Shown here: piece after piece, positions 1,682-58,849 of the stretch
Numbering within the stretch: position 1 is the first letter of the stretch
How the letters are laid out: every line of letters begins with the position of its first letter
Virus record (IMG/VR): IMGVR_UViG_3300020577_005397
Coordinates: 2,746-66,745 of that record
Length of the DNA stretch: 64,000 bases
DNA from: a virus
Lineage: Duplodnaviria; Caudoviricetes
Reading direction: 5' to 3' (one strand)
The notes under the pieces: generated by a model
What the model was told of the DNA's origin: nothing
Databases searched by the model: none
Seen by the model: only the letters and a program-made list of their open reading frames with translations
Translations under genes and position numbers: made by a program

Positions 1682-3250
1682 TTACTCCTGAGAGAACTGA
1701 ATGCTTTCGGGGGTTTCTTCGATCACTTCGTAGCCGCCGAACATCTTGGCGACTTTGGGGCTTGGTTTGGCGCGAGTGCCCAGTCCGCGCTCAGAGGTTT
1801 GTGAACGGGCTGTCGGATTCTTAGGCTGGGGCTTGAGCTTGGCCTGCTCTTGTGCGAGCTTCAGCTCCTGCTCTGCGGCCATCGTAGCCTGTACGGCCTG
1901 ATCCTGCGGGGAACCGGGGAACGGCGTGCCCATCTCGGGCTTGGCTTTTTGCGGGGCAGAGGGTTTCTGACCGCTGCCACTTTCACCGTCTTCTGTGAGA
2001 TCCGGTGTGCTGGCAAACGAGGAGGGGATCAGGCTCTTGTCGATGGCAAGCTGCATCGCCTGTTCGAGCGAGATCATGCCTGCGGTGCCCAGCGCCTGGA
2101 TCTGAGCCAGTTGCTGCTGATCGACCGCTAGCTTCTGGAGGTTGTCGCGGTAGTCATTCTCTTCGAAGCCGAAGACCACACGACCGGGGACGACGTTTTC
2201 GTTGATGGCCTGAGCAAATGCGTTCTCCCAGGCAGCGATACCCTTGCCTGATGCCTTGTCGTCGATTACCCGTGCCTGCGCACCAGTGCCGAGAGCACGA
2301 GAAGCGAGAAGTTGTGGGTCAAGATCTTGAGGGTCGAGTCCAATAGCGTTCGCATAGATGAGCGCAGCGCGGCGATACTCCTTCTCAGAGTCGAATCCGT
2401 CCGGCAGTGAAGCGAGTTCGATGGTCTCCATCGTCACGCCCTGGGCCGGATCGATACTCGGGATCACGACGGACCCCATGTAGTAAGCAAGCCCTTCAGC
2501 CGCACGAGCCGTCTTGGCGGTCTCGATAGCCATCAGGGTCTGTTCTTCAGACACGTTGCTGACGAAATTGAGGCTGAGAGGTCTCTGGCCGCTGATCTTC
2601 TCGGTGATGTACTGAGTGATGATCCACGTTCGGTAGATCGCCTCATACGCACGCGAAGCCGCGCAGAGCCCAAGACCGCCCAACGAGTCATCGGGCAGCG
2701 GCATATCGCTGATTGAGATGACCTGCCAGTCCTTGAGGATGTGCTCACGCCCGCTCAGGTCTTGATAGATGACGGGCTGCTGAGGATCGCGGGTTCGAAA
2801 ACAGCGCGAGGAGGGCAGATGGGCAAGTCCGACGATGCGAGATCCACGAGCATTGGAAGCTCGAATGACCTCGATGAAGGCCCCATTGTCGGCCAGCAGG
2901 TAATCGCGCAGATGACGAGAGAGGAAACCGCCCCACCCGCCTCGTCCAACACCGTCCATCAGAAGCTCACGGGCCGCTCGCATCGAGCTTTCGGGGCCTT
3001 TGACCTTCCACTCCTTGCTGGCGATACGCGAGATCGCGGTGTAGACGGACGCCGACCAGAAACTCTCGAAGTGAACGGTGGACGCAAGGGTCTTGTCGCG
3101 TTCCGGGGTCCAGTACGTACCGGGGTCCGGGAGCATCCGACCATTGCCCACGATGCCATTGGGAGACTGCCAGCCGAGCAAGAAGGGACGGCGACCGCCC
3201 TTTTCGTAGTCACCGGCAGTGACTGAGCGTTGGATGACTGAGGTATTCAC
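1682..3250 (-). CDS. Portal protein
   Basis: 522 aa directly after terL with a 4-nt overlap; YLLADNGAFIEVIR and LAHLPSSR segments are portal-like. Confidence 0.8.
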   Translation of the reverse strand: MNTSVIQRSVTAGDYEKGGRRPFLLGWQSPNGIVGNGRMLPDPGTYWTPERDKTLASTVHFESFWSASVYTAISRIASKEWKVKGPESSMRAARELLMDGVGRGGWGGFLSRHLRDYLLADNGAFIEVIRASNARGSRIVGLAHLPSSRCFRTRDPQQPVIYQDLSGREHILKDWQVISISDMPLPDDSLGGLGLCAASRAYEAIYRTWIITQYITEKISGQRPLSLNFVSNVSEEQTLMAIETAKTARAAEGLAYYMGSVVIPSIDPAQGVTMETIELASLPDGFDSEKEYRRAALIYANAIGLDPQDLDPQLLASRALGTGAQARVIDDKASGKGIAAWENAFAQAINENVVPGRVVFGFEENDYRDNLQKLAVDQQQLAQIQALGTAGMISLEQAMQLAIDKSLIPSSFASTPDLTEDGESGSGQKPSAPQKAKPEMGTPFPGSPQDQAVQATMAAEQELKLAQEQAKLKPQPKNPTARSQTSERGLGTRAKPSPKVAKMFGGYEVIEETPESIQFSQE

Positions 3251-4812
3251 AGATTGAGCCTAAGCGCCTCGTAGGCGGCCATGCTGAGAGCAACGGTGAG
3301 GTCGATCTTCATGTATTCCGCTCGCTTCACAATGCGCATCTTCTCGCCCTTGATCTCGGCGTTGGCATTCATGACGTGCTCACGGAGCATCGAATCTCCG
3401 TTGTGAAGGATGCGACCGGAACGAATCAGGTCATACAGGTTCTTGTCTGCGATAAATCGCGTTGCAGATTGATTGAACGGGTTCCACCAGCCCACTCGGC
3501 GCTTCTTCAGACGGGTCGCCATGTCGTGAAGCTGGTACTGGTCATAGGCCCATTCGAGGACTTTGTACTTCTTGTAGATGCGTTGGATCTCAGCCTCGGG
3601 CTCTGCGAAGTCGATCTTGCCGCCCTGGGGCGGATACCACGCCTTGGCGTAGCGTACAACGATCTGATCTTCGGTCTGGTCCTTCTTCGAGCCCCTGACA
3701 CGCTCTACACCGACGATGGCGAAGCAGTCCGAGGACACGCCCGCGTCCACGCCAAACACCAGGGAACGATGGGGCGTGAGGGGTTTGATCCTGCGTTCCT
3801 CAGTTTCCTCGCACGCATCCCACCATTCGATGGGTACAAAGGTCTGTGACGACGAAACCCACTGATTGCGATGGACACGCTGGAACTCTGAGGGAGCCAG
3901 CACTGCCGTCTCTTGTGCGTAGTATTCTGGAGTCTGCCACGGTAGGCGAGGCTGAGTGTTCCAGAGCACGAAAAGACGGGCTGCGTCATTGGCGTACACC
4001 TCCAGATCCGGTGGAGCGTCTGGAAGAGTGAGCTGACGACCCTGTTTGACACCGACCTCGTAGAGCTGTTCGAGGAGAGGGGACTCGCCCGTGAAGCCTG
4101 CGTAGGTCTCTACCCATCGCTGTGAGTAACCGAATTTGTTCGGAGGGAGAGTGGCCTCAGTCCACATGCGCTGCTGGGCCTGCTGATGAGCGCCCCACAG
4201 CTCCGAGAACACGACACCATCGGCGTTCGAACCGGCTTCACCGGACGGGTCAATCGGGATCGACTCGATGAAGGCCGAATTGGGCAGCACGAGCCGGTAG
4301 TTGCGCTGCTTGACGATGTTACGCATGACCGGGTTGAGTTCGATGCCCCGGCGCATATAGTAGCCCACACGAGAGTCGGCTTGCTTCAAGTCGTTGGCGA
4401 CGAGATAAACCGAGCCCCAGGGGGCTCCCCAGGCTCGCCAGAGAGCCACAGCAGCCGCAAGCGTGCTTTTACCGGACTTCTTGATGTCTGACCAGATAAC
4501 CGTACTATACACGAACTTGCCCGCGCTGTCTCTTCGCAGGGCTTCGCGTAGGGCGGCTCGCTGGTACGGGGCCAGATTCATCGGCCCCTTGTTCTCGGGA
4601 ATCCAGAAGTTCTGCTCGATCCACTCGTCCGCGTTCGGATTCCACGGGATACTCTGATTCTTCTGGGCCAGTTGCTGGACCCGTTGCTGAAACAGGTCCA
4701 AACCCTGCTTCGGCGTCAAGTTGCCCAGAATTTCCTGGGGTTGGAGCGGGGAGTTGGTCAAAGGTGTATCCTGCCGCTTCTGCGAGGCTTCGCGCTGTGG
4801 GGTCTCGGGCAA
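3247..4812 (-). CDS. terL: Terminase large subunit (start uncertain)
   Basis: Walker A IKKSGKST, Walker B-like VVFSELW, RNase H-like nuclease motifs GVDAG..D, AYDQYQ and KIDLTVALSMA. Confidence 0.92.
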   Translation of the reverse strand: MPETPQREASQKRQDTPLTNSPLQPQEILGNLTPKQGLDLFQQRVQQLAQKNQSIPWNPNADEWIEQNFWIPENKGPMNLAPYQRAALREALRRDSAGKFVYSTVIWSDIKKSGKSTLAAAVALWRAWGAPWGSVYLVANDLKQADSRVGYYMRRGIELNPVMRNIVKQRNYRLVLPNSAFIESIPIDPSGEAGSNADGVVFSELWGAHQQAQQRMWTEATLPPNKFGYSQRWVETYAGFTGESPLLEQLYEVGVKQGRQLTLPDAPPDLEVYANDAARLFVLWNTQPRLPWQTPEYYAQETAVLAPSEFQRVHRNQWVSSSQTFVPIEWWDACEETEERRIKPLTPHRSLVFGVDAGVSSDCFAIVGVERVRGSKKDQTEDQIVVRYAKAWYPPQGGKIDFAEPEAEIQRIYKKYKVLEWAYDQYQLHDMATRLKKRRVGWWNPFNQSATRFIADKNLYDLIRSGRILHNGDSMLREHVMNANAEIKGEKMRIVKRAEYMKIDLTVALSMAAYEALRLNL

Positions 4813-5515: not shown

Positions 5516-5707
5516 CTAAAGTAAGCCGCGCATCCACAGATATTCGTGGATTTTAGCGGCTTCTAGCGTCTTTCTGCGATTGTAGGTGCGAGAGTCGTGG
5601 CAGTATCCGCACGATCCGTGGTTCCGACAGGATCTGGAGAAGGATTTCGGTCTTCGATATGGCCTTCTCCAGTCCTTTCGGTGGGGATAGAAGTTGTCGA
5701 AGCTCAT
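5516..5707 (-). CDS. Small basic phage protein (RKDWRRPY..SCRNHGSCGYC type)
   Basis: Recognisable SCRNHGxCxxC motif of small phage proteins; ATG at 5707. Confidence 0.75.
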   Translation of the reverse strand: MSFDNFYPHRKDWRRPYRRPKSFSRSCRNHGSCGYCHDSRTYNRRKTLEAAKIHEYLWMRGLL

Positions 5708-5835
5708 AGAGCTGTAATTTCGGCGGGGGGTCTCCAAAACACGCATCCGCAGGCAACGGACTATGGCCGTGCCTTATCTCGGCTGGTGCCCCATGAGATA
5801 CCCCCCCATGTGGTATGAGGCACCGATTGTAGAGC

Positions 5836-5920
5836 GTGAGTAGGTGCCGGGGGCCACGCAGCCCGGTCCTCGGGGTGTCTCCCCCGCGTGCCAGAATGGC
5901 ATTACACTACACCAACTCAC
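5836..5920 (-). ncRNA. Degenerate cloverleaf RNA element
   Basis: GTGAGT-T-GGTG/CACC-T-ACTCAC closing stem with TGCCA/TGGCA, CGGGG/CCCCG and CCGGG/CCCGG arms; no TTCRA T-loop. Confidence 0.5.
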
Positions 5921-5922
5921 AG

Positions 5923-6009
5923 TGGAGGCGGCGGGAATCGAACCCGCGTTTCAGGAGGCCGTGCGGACTCGTCGCCCAGCCGTGCCTACCTGACTGACCA
6001 TTCGCCCCC
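5923..6009 (-). ncRNA. Mini tmRNA-like RNA (tRNA-like domain only, Ala identity)
   Basis: Acceptor GGGGGCG/CGCCTCC+A with G3.U70; stemless D region; helix TCAGG-T-AGGC/GCCT-CCTGA closed by a short hairpin; AAC linker; T arm GCGGG-TTCGATT-CCCGC. Confidence 0.8.
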
Positions 6010-6099
6010 TGGAGGCCCTGCCCCGATTTCAAGTCGGTTGGGGCCTTTCGGGAGAGCATTGCGAGAACCTTCAATTGGAACCCGCTGTCTCTCGCCTGA

Positions 6100-6173
6100 G
6101 TCGCGCAAAGGTATTGACCCTTTTCACTGGCGGGTCTGGGCAGAGACACCAGTGCGTTTCCTAACGGCGCGAC
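6100..6173 (-). ncRNA. 74-nt tRNA-like cloverleaf (non-canonical)
   Basis: 7-bp GTCGCGC/GCGCGAC stem; CGTT/AACG and CACTGG/CCAGTG arms; T-like arm AAAGG-GTCAATA-CCTTT adjoining the 3' strand. Confidence 0.5.
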
Positions 6174-6181
6174 GTTCAAAC

Positions 6182-6406
6182 CTAGTTCTTCACTTCGACG
6201 CTCTCGACTCCTACGAACGAGAGTTTGGTCAGGTCCATGAACTGGATCTTGACCGACTCGTCTTCCACGACCAGGGACTCGATCCGGCCCGACGGCCCGA
6301 GCTTGATCTCCTTGACCGGCTCAGTCCGCTGCAACGTGCCCCGGATCGGCACCCCGTCCACGACCATGACCAGCCGGTACTCCAGGTGAGTCAGCGCCGT
6401 GGTCAC
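6182..6406 (-). CDS. Hypothetical protein (beta-rich)
   Basis: GTG start overlaps the upstream stop (GTGA); C-terminal part of track ORF 6182..6565. Confidence 0.65.
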   Translation of the reverse strand: MTTALTHLEYRLVMVVDGVPIRGTLQRTEPVKEIKLGPSGRIESLVVEDESVKIQFMDLTKLSFVGVESVEVKN

Positions 6407-6720
6407 TTGACCGCTCCCGGAGAGGGCATCCCGAGCCCCAGAAGCAGGTAGAAGATGGTGGACGCGCCCCAGGCGATCAGGAAGCTGTTCAGGTACGGAT
6501 TGACCGCCGGGACATTCAGGGCGACGAAAATGCCCAGCAAGCCCAGCAGGCTCATGATTCGCCACGCGACGACCTCGAAGGTCCAGACCTTCAGGCGAGC
6601 CTTGTAGGCTTCCACCTGGGTCTCGGTGAAGTAGCCGAAGGCTTTGTTCACCATGTCCGGGTTTTGGGACAGTTCATCCAGACGACGCTTTTGTTCGGGA
6701 GTGAGTGTTTCTGTTGCCAT
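6403..6720 (-). CDS. Membrane protein, leaderless
   Basis: Two hydrophobic segments; ATG 6 nt after the -10. Confidence 0.75.
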   Translation of the reverse strand: MATETLTPEQKRRLDELSQNPDMVNKAFGYFTETQVEAYKARLKVWTFEVVAWRIMSLLGLLGIFVALNVPAVNPYLNSFLIAWGASTIFYLLLGLGMPSPGAVK

Positions 6721-27448: not shown

Positions 27449-29192
27449 GTCACTTGAGAACGGCGTGAACGTGATCTTCAACCCTACCCCCAGTCAGATC
27501 ATCTGGCCGGGAGAGGGAGAGCGTCGGGTCATCGCCGTGGACATCGAGACGGTCGAGGACGATCCGAACCGGATTCACCGGGCCTCGGGCGTCATGAAGC
27601 TCGTGTCCTACACGTTCGATGGCGTGAACGTGTATGTCGAAGAGGCGTTCCCCTCGCAGGGCTATGAGTTCGCCCACGTCTTCTCTGACCACGTTGTGCC
27701 GTCCGCCCTGAACCAGAATTACATCTGGGTCTTTCACAACGGCACGTTCGACCTTGCCTATCTCAAGAAAGATCCGATCCTACGCGACAAGGCGGGCAAG
27801 CTCAATATCCTGCCTCGCTACTTGCGCGACACTCGGTTGATTGAGAAGGCCCTGTATGCGAACTGGTACAAGAGCTTCAGCCTTGCAGCCGTGACGGCTC
27901 GCCGGTTCGACGTGGTGCTCGATAAGGACGTGCGAGAGACCTTTGTGACGGCTACTCGCAACGACCCCATCACGGAGGAACAGATCGACTACGCCGCAGT
28001 GGACGTGGCGTTCACATGGCGCATCTATGACAAGCAGCGTCTTGAGGTTCAGCAGGCACCCCCGAAGCTACGGGAAGCGATCCTGCTGGACAGCAAAGCG
28101 GCCTGGAGCACGTTGCACTTCCGGGGGGCACCCGTCGATGTGGCGGAATGGACAGCCAACGCGGGACGCAACTCCACGGCGCTCGATCAGGAACTGAGGA
28201 GCTTCCCAGCTAATCCTCGGAGCCCCAAACAAGTCCTGGCTTGGCTTGCTGGTCTCGGCATCTATACGCAGACGACATCGGCCAAGGAACTCAAGCGCCT
28301 AGCGTCCAAGCACCCCGAAGTGCAACGGCTCTTGGAGATCCGCAAGCTCTCCAAGCTGACCTCTTCCTACGGGCTGGACTGGCTGAAATTCGTGGACCCA
28401 GACGGGCTGGTCTACCCGTCGTACAACATCTATGGGGCAGAGACCTCGCGCTGGAGCAGTGCCAACCCGAACCTCCAGCAGATCCCGCGAGGCGACTACC
28501 GCAAGATGTTCAAGGCCCCACCGGGCTATGCGTGGGTCATCGCGGACTACTCCCAACAGGAGGTCCGCATCGCCGCATGGATGGCGAAGGACCACAAGCT
28601 GATCGAGCTGCTGGACCGAGGAGATGTGTACACCGAGGTCGGACGGATCATCTATAACGATCCGGCCATGCAGAAAACGGACAAGCGGCGACAACTCGCC
28701 AAGAGCGCGGTGCTGGGCCTGCTCTACGGCCTCACCCCGAGCGGCATGGCGAAGAACCAGAACATCTCCAAGGACAAGGCCAAGGAGGCGTTCGACGGCA
28801 TCAAGAATGCCTTCCCGGCTCTGTGGAAGTTCATCCACGACCACCGGCAGGCCGAGACGGATGGCTACGTGTCCACGGTGATGGGCCACATGTACTGGCT
28901 CAATCTGTGGGCCTGGAACTGGCGCAACAACGCGGCCAACTCACCTGTGCAGGGCTCCGGCTCTGACATGGTGAAGATCGCAGTGTACAAGTACACGCTT
29001 CAGCGCCCGTTCGAGATCGCGCTGGTCGTGCATGACGAGATCGCGGCCCTCGTGCCTGTAGACGAGGCCCCGGCAGCGAAGGCGATGCTGGAGCGGTGTA
29101 TGCAGGAGGCGTTCGAGGAATGCCTTCCCGGTATGCCGAGTGGCAAGGTGGCCGAGGCCCACATCGGAGCCTCCTGGGCGGACAAGGAGTAA
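27438..29192 (+). CDS. polA: Family A DNA polymerase with 3'-5' exonuclease
   Basis: DIET, HNGTFD, YAAVD; RWSSANPNLQQIP, DYSQQEVR, AKSAVLGLLYG, VQGSGSD, VHDEI. Confidence 0.95.
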   Translation: MYRKSLENGVNVIFNPTPSQIIWPGEGERRVIAVDIETVEDDPNRIHRASGVMKLVSYTFDGVNVYVEEAFPSQGYEFAHVFSDHVVPSALNQNYIWVFHNGTFDLAYLKKDPILRDKAGKLNILPRYLRDTRLIEKALYANWYKSFSLAAVTARRFDVVLDKDVRETFVTATRNDPITEEQIDYAAVDVAFTWRIYDKQRLEVQQAPPKLREAILLDSKAAWSTLHFRGAPVDVAEWTANAGRNSTALDQELRSFPANPRSPKQVLAWLAGLGIYTQTTSAKELKRLASKHPEVQRLLEIRKLSKLTSSYGLDWLKFVDPDGLVYPSYNIYGAETSRWSSANPNLQQIPRGDYRKMFKAPPGYAWVIADYSQQEVRIAAWMAKDHKLIELLDRGDVYTEVGRIIYNDPAMQKTDKRRQLAKSAVLGLLYGLTPSGMAKNQNISKDKAKEAFDGIKNAFPALWKFIHDHRQAETDGYVSTVMGHMYWLNLWAWNWRNNAANSPVQGSGSDMVKIAVYKYTLQRPFEIALVVHDEIAALVPVDEAPAAKAMLERCMQEAFEECLPGMPSGKVAEAHIGASWADKE

Positions 29193-55994: not shown

Positions 55995-58196
55995 TCAGCC
56001 TTTCCTCTGCCGTGTACGGGTGCTGGTGGACTGTCGAACGTAGAGAAGGGGCTGGGGAAGTCTCACTCCGTAATGCCCTTCTTGATACATTCTAACATAG
56101 AAATCCCTGTCCTCCAGGTGTTTTGCAGCCGTCCACGCAGGAATCCATTCCTTGGGGATCAACGCCGTCACGGGATTCAGCAGGGTTTCGCCCGCTTCTG
56201 GCCCATAATCCGGGCTCTCCATGACTTCTTCTGTTTCGTCCACAACCCAGTCGGTGTACACATACAGCCCTGTTTGACGATGCAGAGCCAGCATACGTTC
56301 GAGAGCTTCGGGGTGGAGATAGTCGTCGGCGTCCAGGTAGACCACGTATCGTCCCTGGGCCAGCTCTGTTCCTGCCTGTCGTTTAGGTCCGGGCTGTCCA
56401 TCTTTCACCAGATACCGAGCGTAGGGCTTGTGGGGTGGGGTCTGGAAGCCTCGATTGACGACCAGGATCAGCTCCCAGTTTCGGAAGGTCTGTCCTTCCA
56501 TGCAGGTGAAAATACTGTCGAGAAGGTGTTCGTGGGCCTTTCCTACGGGCACTACCACCGAGATCTCAATGGGGTAGGCCGAGACTACATGATAGCCTTG
56601 AACCGGAGCCGCCAACGGGAACAGCTTGTCCTGCACCCAGGGGAGCCAAGTATCGATTGGGACGTATTGCTTCGTGCGACTGGCCGAGCCGGAATGCAGT
56701 CTGTAGTTGAACAGGCCGTCTTCGGTCACACGTCGGGCAGTGAAGCCCGTAGCCAGCCCACGAGTCCAGAACTCCGCGTCCTCGCCCGGAGCATATTCTT
56801 GTCGATAACCTCCGGCGCGTTGCCACATCTCCTTGCGGAACATGGCCCCAGCCGGGATGCAATTTTGCGGAGGAACGCCACCAGCCGCCTGAACGTCCCA
56901 CGAGAACTCCGGTGGCCACTCGGCCAGCCGGGGCTCTACGCCCTCCTGAATCATCATCAGTCCGGTGTAGGCAACACCGAGGGCATACTCTCTGCGGAAC
57001 GCGGGGATGAGGGTATCCGCGTAGTTAGGAGCGAGGTAGTCATCAGCGTCCAGGCATACGATCAGGTCTCCGGTAGCAGCGGCGATACCATCGTTTCGAG
57101 CAGCCGCCACTCCCTCATTATCTCGCTTTGAGATGAGCTTGTCGGGCGTGTGAGCACGAATGACTTCCAGGCTGTTGTCGGTCGAGGCATCATCCACGAC
57201 CACCACCTCAGCTCCGTTTGCCTTCGCGCTGTCAATCGCCTGACCCACGTACTTGCTGTAGTTATGATTTGTAACGACAACCGACAGCTTGTGGGGCCGC
57301 TTCATGGAGTACGCATCGTGATAACAACGTGCGTACTCTCGTGCGGCACGGTCCCAGGTGAAGTGCTGGGCTGTCTGTCGAGCTGCCGCCGAGCACTCGT
57401 CATAGTGCTCCAAGATCCAATGGTAGCCCCGCAGCAGGTCGTCATAGTCATAGGGCCGACACAGGTAGCCCTCAAACTTGTGCGTGACGAGATCCCGAGT
57501 GCCGCCCCAGTCAAAGCCCAGAATAGGCTTGCCCATCGCCATCGCTTCCACGGTGCCAATCCCGAAGGTCTCTTCCGTGGTGGCGAGGTACATCAGCGAG
57601 TTGGACAATACCTCGCGCATGTCCCCGTCCCCCAGCGGTCCGAGGACGCGCAGAGACGAGGGGCCTGACTTTGTGAAGGTACTCCAAACGTCAATGCCCC
57701 CGGCTGCAAGCCAGTCCGCAGGCGAGGGGTCACACACGTCTTGAGGTCGGTTCTTGTTCCAGAGGACATAGGAGCCCTTGGACGTGCGGTGATTCGAGTA
57801 GAGAGGAACGTCGATGCCGTGTCCAATCACACGCGGCGTAATGCGCATGTCTCGCTGGAAAGGATAGGCAACCCAGTCAGATGGGACCGTGATGATCTTG
57901 GCGTTCCGGGAGCTTTCGATGATCTCCTCGTTGATCCCGTGGTGCCAGCGGTCATAGCGGAACCCGCGCTCCTCGGCGTCGGCTGTCCAGTAGATGCCGT
58001 GCAGGTGAAGCACGTCGATCCAGGGCAACTCGCCCATGCGCGTGTGTGAGGCGATGACCTGGGCCTGATCCGAGGAAGCAACCAGCTCGATGTCGTACTT
58101 AGGCAGGTACTTGTACTGTGCGTGAACGACCCGGCCAATACCATTGTTTGCTTCGATCTGTTCCGGGTGCGGCCACAGATACACCTTCAGCGCCAT
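55995..58196 (-). CDS. Multidomain glycosyltransferase (GT4 plus two GT2 domains)
   Basis: EETFGIGTVEAMAMGKP; SVVVTNHNY, VVDDASTD, CLDADD; second SVVVPVG..YLDADD. Confidence 0.88.
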   Translation of the reverse strand: MALKVYLWPHPEQIEANNGIGRVVHAQYKYLPKYDIELVASSDQAQVIASHTRMGELPWIDVLHLHGIYWTADAEERGFRYDRWHHGINEEIIESSRNAKIITVPSDWVAYPFQRDMRITPRVIGHGIDVPLYSNHRTSKGSYVLWNKNRPQDVCDPSPADWLAAGGIDVWSTFTKSGPSSLRVLGPLGDGDMREVLSNSLMYLATTEETFGIGTVEAMAMGKPILGFDWGGTRDLVTHKFEGYLCRPYDYDDLLRGYHWILEHYDECSAAARQTAQHFTWDRAAREYARCYHDAYSMKRPHKLSVVVTNHNYSKYVGQAIDSAKANGAEVVVVDDASTDNSLEVIRAHTPDKLISKRDNEGVAAARNDGIAAATGDLIVCLDADDYLAPNYADTLIPAFRREYALGVAYTGLMMIQEGVEPRLAEWPPEFSWDVQAAGGVPPQNCIPAGAMFRKEMWQRAGGYRQEYAPGEDAEFWTRGLATGFTARRVTEDGLFNYRLHSGSASRTKQYVPIDTWLPWVQDKLFPLAAPVQGYHVVSAYPIEISVVVPVGKAHEHLLDSIFTCMEGQTFRNWELILVVNRGFQTPPHKPYARYLVKDGQPGPKRQAGTELAQGRYVVYLDADDYLHPEALERMLALHRQTGLYVYTDWVVDETEEVMESPDYGPEAGETLLNPVTALIPKEWIPAWTAAKHLEDRDFYVRMYQEGHYGVRLPQPLLYVRQSTSTRTRQRKG

Positions 58197-58849
58197 CAGA
58201 AGCCTCGATCCTGCCACGAATGGCCGACATGATCCCACAATGTTTCCGTGCGTAGGTTGACGGGAATGCCCACAACCGGGGCCATCAGATCCAGCTTGCC
58301 CAGGTCGATACAGTTGTGGCAGAAGCCCTCCTCAGTCTCACCGAGCTTCAGGCCCTCTGGGTACAGCCCATAGTACGCATGGAAGGAAATGTTCTTGAGG
58401 TGCGGGCGATTGCTGGGGATGTACACTTCCGGGCTGTCCCAGCGCACTCGCCAGTAGTTCCCCACGAGGCGGGCATCGAACGAGTGAGCGGCCACGCCCA
58501 TGAGCCGAATCCACTTCACCGGGTTGAGCGGATCGCGGAGCACCTTGATATGGTCATCCACGTCCAGCGGATCTCGAAGCCAGTGGTCATCGTCCATCTG
58601 GAGGATGATGTCGGTCTCCTGGTTGGCCGCTCGCAGTAGCGTGTTCAGGTTGTTGCCCAGGAACCGGCTCTCGGGCTTGATGACAGTCACGTTGGGCTGT
58701 CCGTCGAACTTCTCGGCTACGTTGTCCGTGCCTGCGTCCCCAATGAAGAACTTGATCTCCTCCTGGGTAATCAGGTTGCTCTTGATACGGACACACGTTT
58801 CCCACAGCAGATCACGTCGATTGAAGGTGGGGAGGACTACCGCGATCAT
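58196..58849 (-). CDS. GT2-family glycosyltransferase
   Basis: VVLPTFNR, QMDDDH; TGATG overlaps on both sides. Confidence 0.85.
   Translation of the reverse strand: MIAVVLPTFNRRDLLWETCVRIKSNLITQEEIKFFIGDAGTDNVAEKFDGQPNVTVIKPESRFLGNNLNTLLRAANQETDIILQMDDDHWLRDPLDVDDHIKVLRDPLNPVKWIRLMGVAAHSFDARLVGNYWRVRWDSPEVYIPSNRPHLKNISFHAYYGLYPEGLKLGETEEGFCHNCIDLGKLDLMAPVVGIPVNLRTETLWDHVGHSWQDRGF

Follow-up and report, generated by a model that had tools for sequence, protein, structure and literature searches.

The window analysed here is a 64,000-nucleotide (nt) stretch of IMG/VR virus record IMGVR_UViG_3300020577_005397 and covers nearly all of this virus genome, which is complete at 66,745 bp and bears direct terminal repeats. 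At positions 5923-6009, on the minus strand, it holds an 87-nt RNA gene which, by its sequence and fold, consists only of that part of transfer-messenger RNA (tmRNA) which is called its tRNA-like domain (TLD), without the tag-coding part. We read this element as a phage-encoded, tag-less mini-tmRNA of the type known from Mycobacterium phage DS6A, with a probability of about 0.9. The TLD is complete and in the standard order, helix 2 is closed by a hairpin, the RNA is shorter than about 100 nt, its carrier is a phage, and the family model R1 presented below relates it to the DS6A molecule.

Bacteria rely chiefly on trans-translation to rescue ribosomes and to control protein quality, and the system is also a drug target; how phages handle it is, to our knowledge, almost unstudied. 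A single TLD-only tmRNA of a phage has been published, listed as ‘Mycobacterium phage DS6A (TLD only)’ by Hudson, Lau & Williams 2014 (PMC4131195). The 2025 tmRNA database holds nine ‘Standard, no CDS’ (no coding sequence) entries among 97,179 (PMC11915505), and our full-text literature search found no description of a wider phage family of TLD-only tmRNAs. Since the DS6A form had already been published, the initial annotation of the window overstated the novelty of the element, which does not represent a new class; for the window element itself our result is confirmatory and not new in kind. What is new is a conserved, covarying, virtually phage-restricted and mostly unannotated RNA family that keeps the alanine identity set. 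New as well are the evidence that goes with it, namely a selection test on G3.U70 and A73, structure-blind covariation of helix 2, near-absence from bacterial genomes, and conservation combined with interior swapping in close relatives.

Anatomy and assignment of the element

The element is made up of the following parts, with RNA positions counted from its 5′ end.

5923..6009, minus strand: whole TLD-only mini-tmRNA, G1 at 6009 and discriminator A at 5923 (sequence, Rfam, fold, R1)
6003..6009, minus strand: acceptor stem 5′ strand GGGGGCG, RNA 1-7, G3 at 6007, pairing with 5924-5930
5994..6002, minus strand: stemless D-loop analogue AAUGGUCAG, RNA 8-16, with A8 and GG at 11-12, unpaired in the minimum free energy (MFE) fold
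5951..5993, minus strand: helix 2-like rod, RNA 17-59 (43 nt), an irregular stem of 17 bp (MFE fold)
5948..5950, minus strand: linker AAC, 3 nt, RNA 60-62, family consensus NAC (sequence, fold)
5931..5947, minus strand: T arm GCGGG-UUCGAUU-CCCGC, RNA 63-79 (sequence, Rfam alignment, fold)
5924..5930, minus strand: acceptor stem 3′ strand CGCCUCC, RNA 80-86, U70 at 5926 (sequence, fold)
5923..5923, minus strand: discriminator A (A73-equivalent), RNA 87, followed by CUG in the DNA

The acceptor stem comprises 7 bp including G3.U70, and the D analogue lines up with GAucuGG of the Rfam tmRNA consensus. The rod takes the site of the pseudoknots and of the tag frame in full tmRNA. Its base reads UCAGG-U-AGGC...GCCU-CCUGA, four one-base bulges (U22, A27, U32 and A48) interrupt it, and a GACGA pentaloop (5969-5973) caps it. 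The unconstrained MFE fold is exactly the structure listed above, at -46.6 kcal/mol (z -3.3, with none of 200 shuffles as good), and the interior taken by itself is more stable than shuffled interiors (z -2.9). As CUG directly follows the discriminator A, CCA is not encoded and must be added post-transcriptionally. The acceptor with G3.U70, the stemless D region, the helix 2-like stem, the AAC linker and the T arm, all noted in the initial annotation, were recovered on the minus strand at the positions it gave. The same holds for the hairpin in place of pseudoknots and tag frame, the unencoded CCA and the absence of an alanine anticodon loop.

Resume codon, tag frame and stop codon, which make up the mRNA-like domain, are missing: only 43 nt separate the D analogue from the linker, all of them stem-loop, and the MFE fold leaves no single-stranded interior stretch able to hold a tag frame. 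Nor was a hidden tag frame found, frame 3 running to a UGA at RNA 57-59 wholly inside the stem. The pseudoknots PK1-PK4 are likewise absent, the cmscan alignment replacing 328 model positions by 48 nt. In the places where tRNA-Ala would display a 7-nt loop with an NGC anticodon, a D arm and U8, the element presents the GACGA loop, an unpaired D region and A8; no 7-nt anticodon-type loop occurs in the folded interior.

The best Rfam family is tmRNA (RF00023), with 42 bits and an E-value of 3.6e-15 in a 1-kb search, and of 5.7e-17 when the whole phage genome is searched; the model is matched end to end (1-374), the 328 internal positions excepted. These values were obtained with E-value thresholds. 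The gathering cut-off of RF00023 lies at 47 bits, and at gathering thresholds Rfam reports nothing in the window. The shortfall is explained by the shrinkage of the 328 pseudoknot and tag-frame positions to 48 nt. The initial annotation had proposed a tmRNA TLD without mRNA-like domain, with an ordinary tRNA as the competing assignment; Infernal decides for tmRNA, which outscores the other tRNA-clan models (their overlapping matches being dropped), and ARAGORN calls neither a tRNA nor a tmRNA anywhere in the 64-kb window. The permuted form of the model (tmRNA_permuted, RF04321) also gives a match at 5876-5947, sub-threshold with 26.7 bits against a cut-off of 47. It is built from the T arm and 3′ acceptor strand together with a GGGGGAG lying downstream, and we regard it as a side effect of the shared T arm.

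The viral family and its alanine identity set

Viral contigs were searched with a first pattern that contained only the most conserved TLD letters and a gap of 30-60 nt, G3 and U70 being fixed. It gave 52 loci, corresponding to at least 41 distinct elements of 69-87 nt. When acceptor and T arm are constrained, nearly all of them fold as an acceptor, a loop of about 10 nt, a central helix, a 3-nt linker and a T arm. Interiors vary freely in length and sequence; their folds are more stable than those of shuffled versions (mean z -1.5), and in 37 of 42 elements the interior helix reaches with its 3′ strand right up to the linker. On 41 members ARAGORN made no tmRNA call and two forced tRNA calls. 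Rfam, applied to 20 members, passes 12 at the tmRNA cut-off (47.9-77.7 bits) and misses 8, tRNA being the best model for none.

The family model R1 was seeded with the window element and 40 viral elements, DS6A being left out. It scores the window element at 65 bits and matches DS6A at 47.7 bits (E 1.8e-6). The DS6A element itself, 80 nt at 28478-28557 of JN698994 and unannotated there, obtains 43.2 bits with RF00023 against 42 for the window.

Base pairs left free by the search covary. Among 41 elements, the acceptor pair 5:68 is GC in 18, CG in 14, AU in 8 and UA in 1; the pair 6:67 is UA in 26, CG in 9, UG in 4 and AU in 2; and the second pair of the T stem is UA in 16, CG in 13, AU in 9 and GC in 3. 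In a first structure-fitted alignment (A3), where 53% of cells were paired, the strands of helix 2 were not in register, and a subfamily alignment (A4) was used instead. For a structure-blind test, 17 members including DS6A and the Streptomyces phages BRock, LuckySocke and Alone3 were aligned with MAFFT. All four helices covary in this alignment: the score is 0.426, compared with 0.131 in shuffled alignments (none of 500 attains 0.426) and 0.07-0.12 with slid partners. The share of paired cells is 89.7%, that of shuffles 73.4%, and the helix 2 pairs show 5-8 double-sided changes each. The helices proposed in the initial annotation are thus borne out by covariation among related phage elements.

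A G.U pair is only one transition away from G-C, and G3.U70 is the determinant recognized by alanyl-tRNA synthetase (AlaRS). In a second scan the 3′ strand was unconstrained and position 3 free, and distinct matches with a formed acceptor stem and T arm were counted. Among the matches listed, 3:70 is G.U in 42 of 47, three of the five exceptions being ordinary tRNAs caught by the loose pattern; the discriminator is A in 44 of the same 47, and CCA is encoded in only 18. Many members, the window element included, must therefore rely on CCA addition by the host. L060, obtained with a further pattern, combines the unusual D analogue of the window (GAAUGGUCAGUC) with a DS6A-like interior and represents the closest subtype. 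BLAST with L060 led to unannotated copies in the tRNA arrays of three cultured Streptomyces phages of 112-116 kb, which R1 confirms at 42-55 bits:

L179:701-777: mini-tmRNA of Streptomyces phage Alone3
L180:687-764: mini-tmRNA of Streptomyces phage LuckySocke
L181:676-753: mini-tmRNA of Streptomyces phage BRock

These copies lie between tRNA-Val and the next tRNA, which is tRNA-Ser in Alone3 and LuckySocke and tRNA-Cys in BRock. Their acceptor stems are GGGUCUG/CAGAUCC, or GGGUUUG/CAAAUCC in BRock. In these copies, which were found by similarity, 4:69 has changed from G-C to U-A and G3.U70 is kept. That G3.U70 persists beside freely changing neighbours suggests that charging by AlaRS is under selection; for the alanine identity set itself, G3.U70 plus A73, selection is shown at the level of sequence comparison.

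About one third of family members are located in phage tRNA arrays, a position that fits tRNA-like expression and processing. No protein neighbour recurs across 41 loci, the largest cluster comprising 4 related loci. The first pattern was also run on one genome per species from 185,579 bacterial and archaeal species. It produced 28 matches, all in metagenome-assembled genomes. Most are chance matches inside full-length tmRNAs, with a CUAAGCAUGUAG-type 3′ motif and often an unpaired ‘acceptor’; 3-4 look like true TLD-only elements, and for one of them the contig is identical with a viral record. On these counts the TLD-only form appears essentially phage-specific.

Several contigs carrying mini-tmRNAs harbour other structured RNAs. 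A GOLLD RNA (L042:2604-3013, minus strand, 173 bits) lies directly upstream of the mini-tmRNA at L042:2512-2590 in a viral contig; elsewhere we noted a HEARO RNA (L029:794-1003, 171 bits), a Pistol ribozyme (L019:3130-3201, 44.8 bits) and a type II hammerhead (L014:5839-5903, 39.7 bits).

With the 87-nt element as BLAST query, only a generic 27-mer of T arm and acceptor was matched, in hundreds of phage records. Calle_1, Marzo, SirSheldon and Tunturi_4 were examined from these matches, and none contains a standard-order TLD-only element. In Cellulophaga phage Calle_1 (L056) and Stenotrophomonas phage Marzo (L057), the features annotated as ‘tmRNA’ measure 360-375 nt, overlap with tRNA genes or a coding sequence and have the T arm internal. 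They look like automatic permuted-tmRNA calls, and R1 finds no TLD-only element in standard order there (22.8-26.4 bits). Tunturiibacter phage Tunturi_4 (PP885687) encodes at L059:216-627 an annotated ‘RF-1 domain peptide chain release factor’ of about 115 aa, the size of ArfB. The gene ends 17 nt before a tmRNA-like piece with D loop, T arm and 3′ acceptor strand with CCA but no adjoining 5′ acceptor strand, which may be a permuted or partial tmRNA beside a ribosome-rescue protein.

Close relatives and locus of the phage

Contigs holding this stretch come from river, freshwater, activated-sludge and wastewater metagenomes. A freshwater contig, about 95% identical, does not differ from the window at any position of 5919-6009, but has 12 changes in 6010-6400 and 16 in 5600-5830. 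Divergence in the flanks amounts to 3-7%, and at a flank rate of about 4.5% the chance of 0 changes in 87 nt is about 0.02; we count this as support for local purifying selection on the element. In the same contig and in one contig from a wastewater run, 5830 is joined directly to 5919, the 88 nt 3′ of the element being deleted. A short wastewater contig keeps 5921-5954 and 5997-6026, but 68 other letters replace 5955-5996. In close relatives as in the wider family, the aligned letters indicate that the TLD frame is constant and the interior exchangeable. Short activated-sludge contigs with depths from 165 to 1100 cover only the 28 nt 5922-5949, and their depth indicates that this stretch is common to abundant bacterial tmRNAs.

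The element sits in a 435-nt gap between small minus-strand open reading frames (ORFs) at 6182-6565 and 5516-5746. It is co-oriented with the large terminase gene (TerL, 3247-4812, minus strand) and lies about 1.1 kb upstream of it. Two ORFs that overlap it, 5907-6179 (minus) and 5888-6451 (plus), are not real genes, because a 1-nt deletion (6010) and the 88-nt deletion (5831-5918) of the relatives would break them. Two further folds, recognized as tRNA neither by ARAGORN nor by Rfam, were observed in the same non-coding block, both on the minus strand. The first, at 6100-6173 and 90 nt upstream of the mini-tmRNA, is a tRNA-shaped fold of 74 nt (z -4.0, 0 of 200 shuffles as good). Its closing stem has 7 bp, its first, central and third arms have 4, 8 and 5 bp, and the third arm ends in a loop of 7 nt that is not a UUCGA-type T loop; the single substitution seen there in three relatives (6124) falls on an unpaired position. 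The second, at 5831-5921, begins 2-4 nt past the mini-tmRNA and is an RNA of some 88 nt; it folds into a cloverleaf of three arms, closed by a stem of 10 bp (MFE -41.6 kcal/mol, z -2.1). As contigs from two runs delete exactly 5831-5918 and keep the mini-tmRNA, this cloverleaf is a dispensable, insertion-like module.

Besides the terminase, the genome of this tailed phage encodes a tape measure protein, a family A DNA polymerase (PolA), a DnaB-type helicase, a GH25 lysin and glycosyltransferases. One protein of 747 aa (55995-58238, minus strand) combines group 1 and family 2 glycosyltransferase domains, an unusual cargo in the structural arm of a tailed phage. No SmpB gene was found in the phage genome, so the RNA must use host partners. 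Protein identity to any cultured phage does not exceed 27%; the weak best matches (23-27%) lean to phages of Actinobacteria and other Gram-positives and name no host. When the locus and a 20-kb stretch were compared by BLAST with 50,697 phage records, no match was obtained, and a TerL-based search for syntenic relatives yielded one locus (L002, 47% identity), which lacks the element.

Possible functions and comparison with known systems

As to function, our preference, a slight one, goes to an alanyl-chargeable decoy that would bind SmpB and EF-Tu in competition with host tmRNA. Host RNase P (at the 5′ end) and a 3′ tRNA-processing nuclease would release the RNA from a longer transcript, the host CCA-adding enzyme would add CCA, and host AlaRS would charge the RNA with alanine via G3.U70 and A73. 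Through its elbow and its helix 2 the RNA would then bind host SmpB in the manner seen for the TLD in the solved SmpB-TLD structures, and in its alanylated form EF-Tu as well. It would thereby compete with the host's full-length tmRNA for SmpB as well as stalled ribosomes. Products of broken or non-stop messages made during infection would escape the ssrA degradation tag, and host trans-translation would be weakened.

What speaks for charging by AlaRS, SmpB binding and inhibition of tagging is the literature on similar molecules together with the conservation of G3.U70 and A73. A molecule similar to the DS6A RNA strongly inhibits tmRNA in E. coli, perhaps by titrating SmpB, according to the passages of PMC4131195 and PMC11915505 that deal with it; the latter states there that the DS6A form expressed in E. 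coli inhibits endogenous tmRNA. In the corresponding passage of PMC4131195 an uncharged TLD still inhibits, so that the published inhibitor works whether chargeable or not. The initial annotation had proposed that the element either blocks host trans-translation or rescues ribosomes without a tag, an alternative that appears to match this DS6A literature.

Several points weigh against the reading as an active mini-tmRNA. Transcription, processing, CCA addition, alanylation and SmpB binding of this RNA are steps that we infer, and its compatibility with AlaRS and SmpB of the host is presumed. The D analogue GGUCAG differs from the usual GGUUUCGAC, helix 2a of the element is unmodelled in the Rfam alignment, and the score lies below the gathering cut-off. 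A promoter and terminator scan found no promoter-like site and no terminator adjoining the element; the RNA probably arises by processing of a longer transcript. Finally, simple titration of SmpB would not need a near-invariant G3.U70 and A73. That these are kept, although the published inhibitor works without charging, points to a step at EF-Tu or on the ribosome and leaves room for tag-free rescue.

Tag-free rescue is the main rival of the decoy, albeit a rather unlikely one. The alanylated mini-tmRNA, with host SmpB and EF-Tu, would enter the stalled ribosome, accept the nascent chain and add alanine only, or several alanines in repeated rounds; release would follow by Pth drop-off, ArfB-type factors or ribosome splitting, with fast recycling and products unmarked for proteolysis. 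The retention of G3.U70 and A73 in very divergent members, though an uncharged TLD inhibits, would be accounted for by selection for charging and ribosome entry, and the members within phage tRNA arrays would be parts of a translation toolkit. CDS-less organellar tmRNAs, conserved alongside SmpB (PMC11915505), are thought to work likewise. On the other hand, no route is known by which the peptidyl-RNA could be released without resume and stop codons, genes for release factors, Pth or ArfB do not recur beside the elements at the 41 loci, and the sole experimental report on such a molecule, in the passages cited above, is of inhibition.

A role outside trans-translation seems improbable. The RNA would be a decoy for anti-phage nucleases or modification enzymes of the host directed at tRNA or tmRNA, an RNase P/Z ‘punctuation’ of a polycistronic late transcript, or the carrier of a working interior. 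The 435-nt non-coding block does hold two cloverleaf-like folds besides the element (6100-6173 and 5831-5921), and the interior varies freely, up to the 68-letter replacement in a relative. However, a signal or decoy of this kind would not need a strict A8, the stemless D analogue, helix 2 geometry, G3.U70 and A73, and the neighbouring cloverleaf is deleted in relatives whose element is unchanged.

That the element is a functionless leftover, either a decayed copy of captured host ssrA or a tmRNA-derived attP core, is very improbable and already largely refuted. Integration into ssrA is frequent among phages, which carry the 3′ end of this gene, and 5922-5949 is shared with abundant bacterial tmRNAs. 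Yet an attP core contains only the 3′ part of ssrA, whereas here the 5′ acceptor strand and the D analogue are present and the acceptor pairs perfectly. Moreover, no tyrosine integrase (Phage_integrase) was found in the complete 66.7-kb genome, the element shows 0 changes against 3-7% in the flanks, and compensatory changes occur in the family.

The acceptor piece of a two-piece (permuted) tmRNA with its coding piece just downstream, which the 26.7-bit RF04321 match would suggest, is refuted by the 5831-5918 deletion in contigs from two runs, which removes the supposed 5′ strand with GGGGGAG and keeps the element; besides, the upstream GGGGGCG pairs perfectly in standard order where GGGGGAG would give an A-G mismatch, DS6A shows the same spurious permuted match (22 bits), and tag-like GCN...stop frames are no commoner in interiors across the family than in shuffled ones.

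A bolder version of function, which we hold only tentatively, is that the charged mini-tmRNA, instead of being a passive sponge for SmpB, acts on the ribosome itself, clearing stalls or capping products with alanine but no tag, and that the exchangeable interior forms a second module, for example one where a factor of phage or host could dock. If true, it would mean a widespread viral reprogramming of bacterial ribosome rescue, and studies on the tRNA half of trans-translation would gain a minimal substrate of natural origin. This raises the question of whether host rescue is shut off or replaced by a viral tRNA-like decoy, and whether alanine charging is needed for it. The cultured Streptomyces carriers make this function testable in a tractable host.

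The closest known system is DS6A (tmRNA Website tmID 11587). Both RNAs are phage-borne and in standard, non-permuted order, with 80 nt in DS6A and 87 nt in the window. They share G3.U70, A73, an unencoded CCA, the stemless D analogue, a hairpin-capped helix 2, a 3-nt linker and the T arm; both are matched by R1, and both are unannotated in their records. DS6A and many relatives possess a helix 2a of 6-8 bp, a GAAA-type internal loop and a CCGC-ACG-CGG hairpin, whereas the window element has a bulged rod of 17 bp with a GACGA loop; the D analogue is GGUCAG in the window and GGUGGUCGAC in DS6A. The window phage, from river and wastewater metagenomes, is unrelated to DS6A.

With bacterial tmRNA (SsrA, RF00023) the element has in common a TLD that includes G3.U70 and A73, A8 and a GG in the D analogue, and a T loop reading UUCGAUU, and it presumably relies on the same AlaRS, SmpB, EF-Tu and RNase P. 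It differs in lacking PK1-PK4, resume codon, tag frame and stop codon, and in measuring 87 nt against about 350 nt. In jakobid mitochondria and in some plastids, tmRNAs without a CDS have been conserved together with SmpB, and a role in dealing with incomplete mRNAs is presumed for them (PMC11915505). These forms (jakobid mitochondrial tmRNA, Rfam mt-tmRNA, and the plastid forms of about 65 bp in Mallomonadaceae, PMC11915505) also consist of little beyond an alanine-accepting TLD. The mitochondrial ones, however, stem from permuted two-piece genes, and are the only tmRNA of an organelle into which SmpB is imported. As the phage RNA, in standard order, would act where a full tmRNA is already present in the cell, competition would be the expected outcome.

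Finally, SmpB binds the TLD, and the two together mimic a tRNA (PMC3022190). As cited in that paper, the SmpB-TLD crystal structures were obtained with engineered TLD fragments to which SmpB is bound 1:1, and these fragments are of the same design as the phage RNA, with acceptor, D analogue, T arm and a loop-closed helix 2a. The engineered fragments are laboratory constructs, whereas the phage RNA, with its longer helix 2, is a natural gene under selection.

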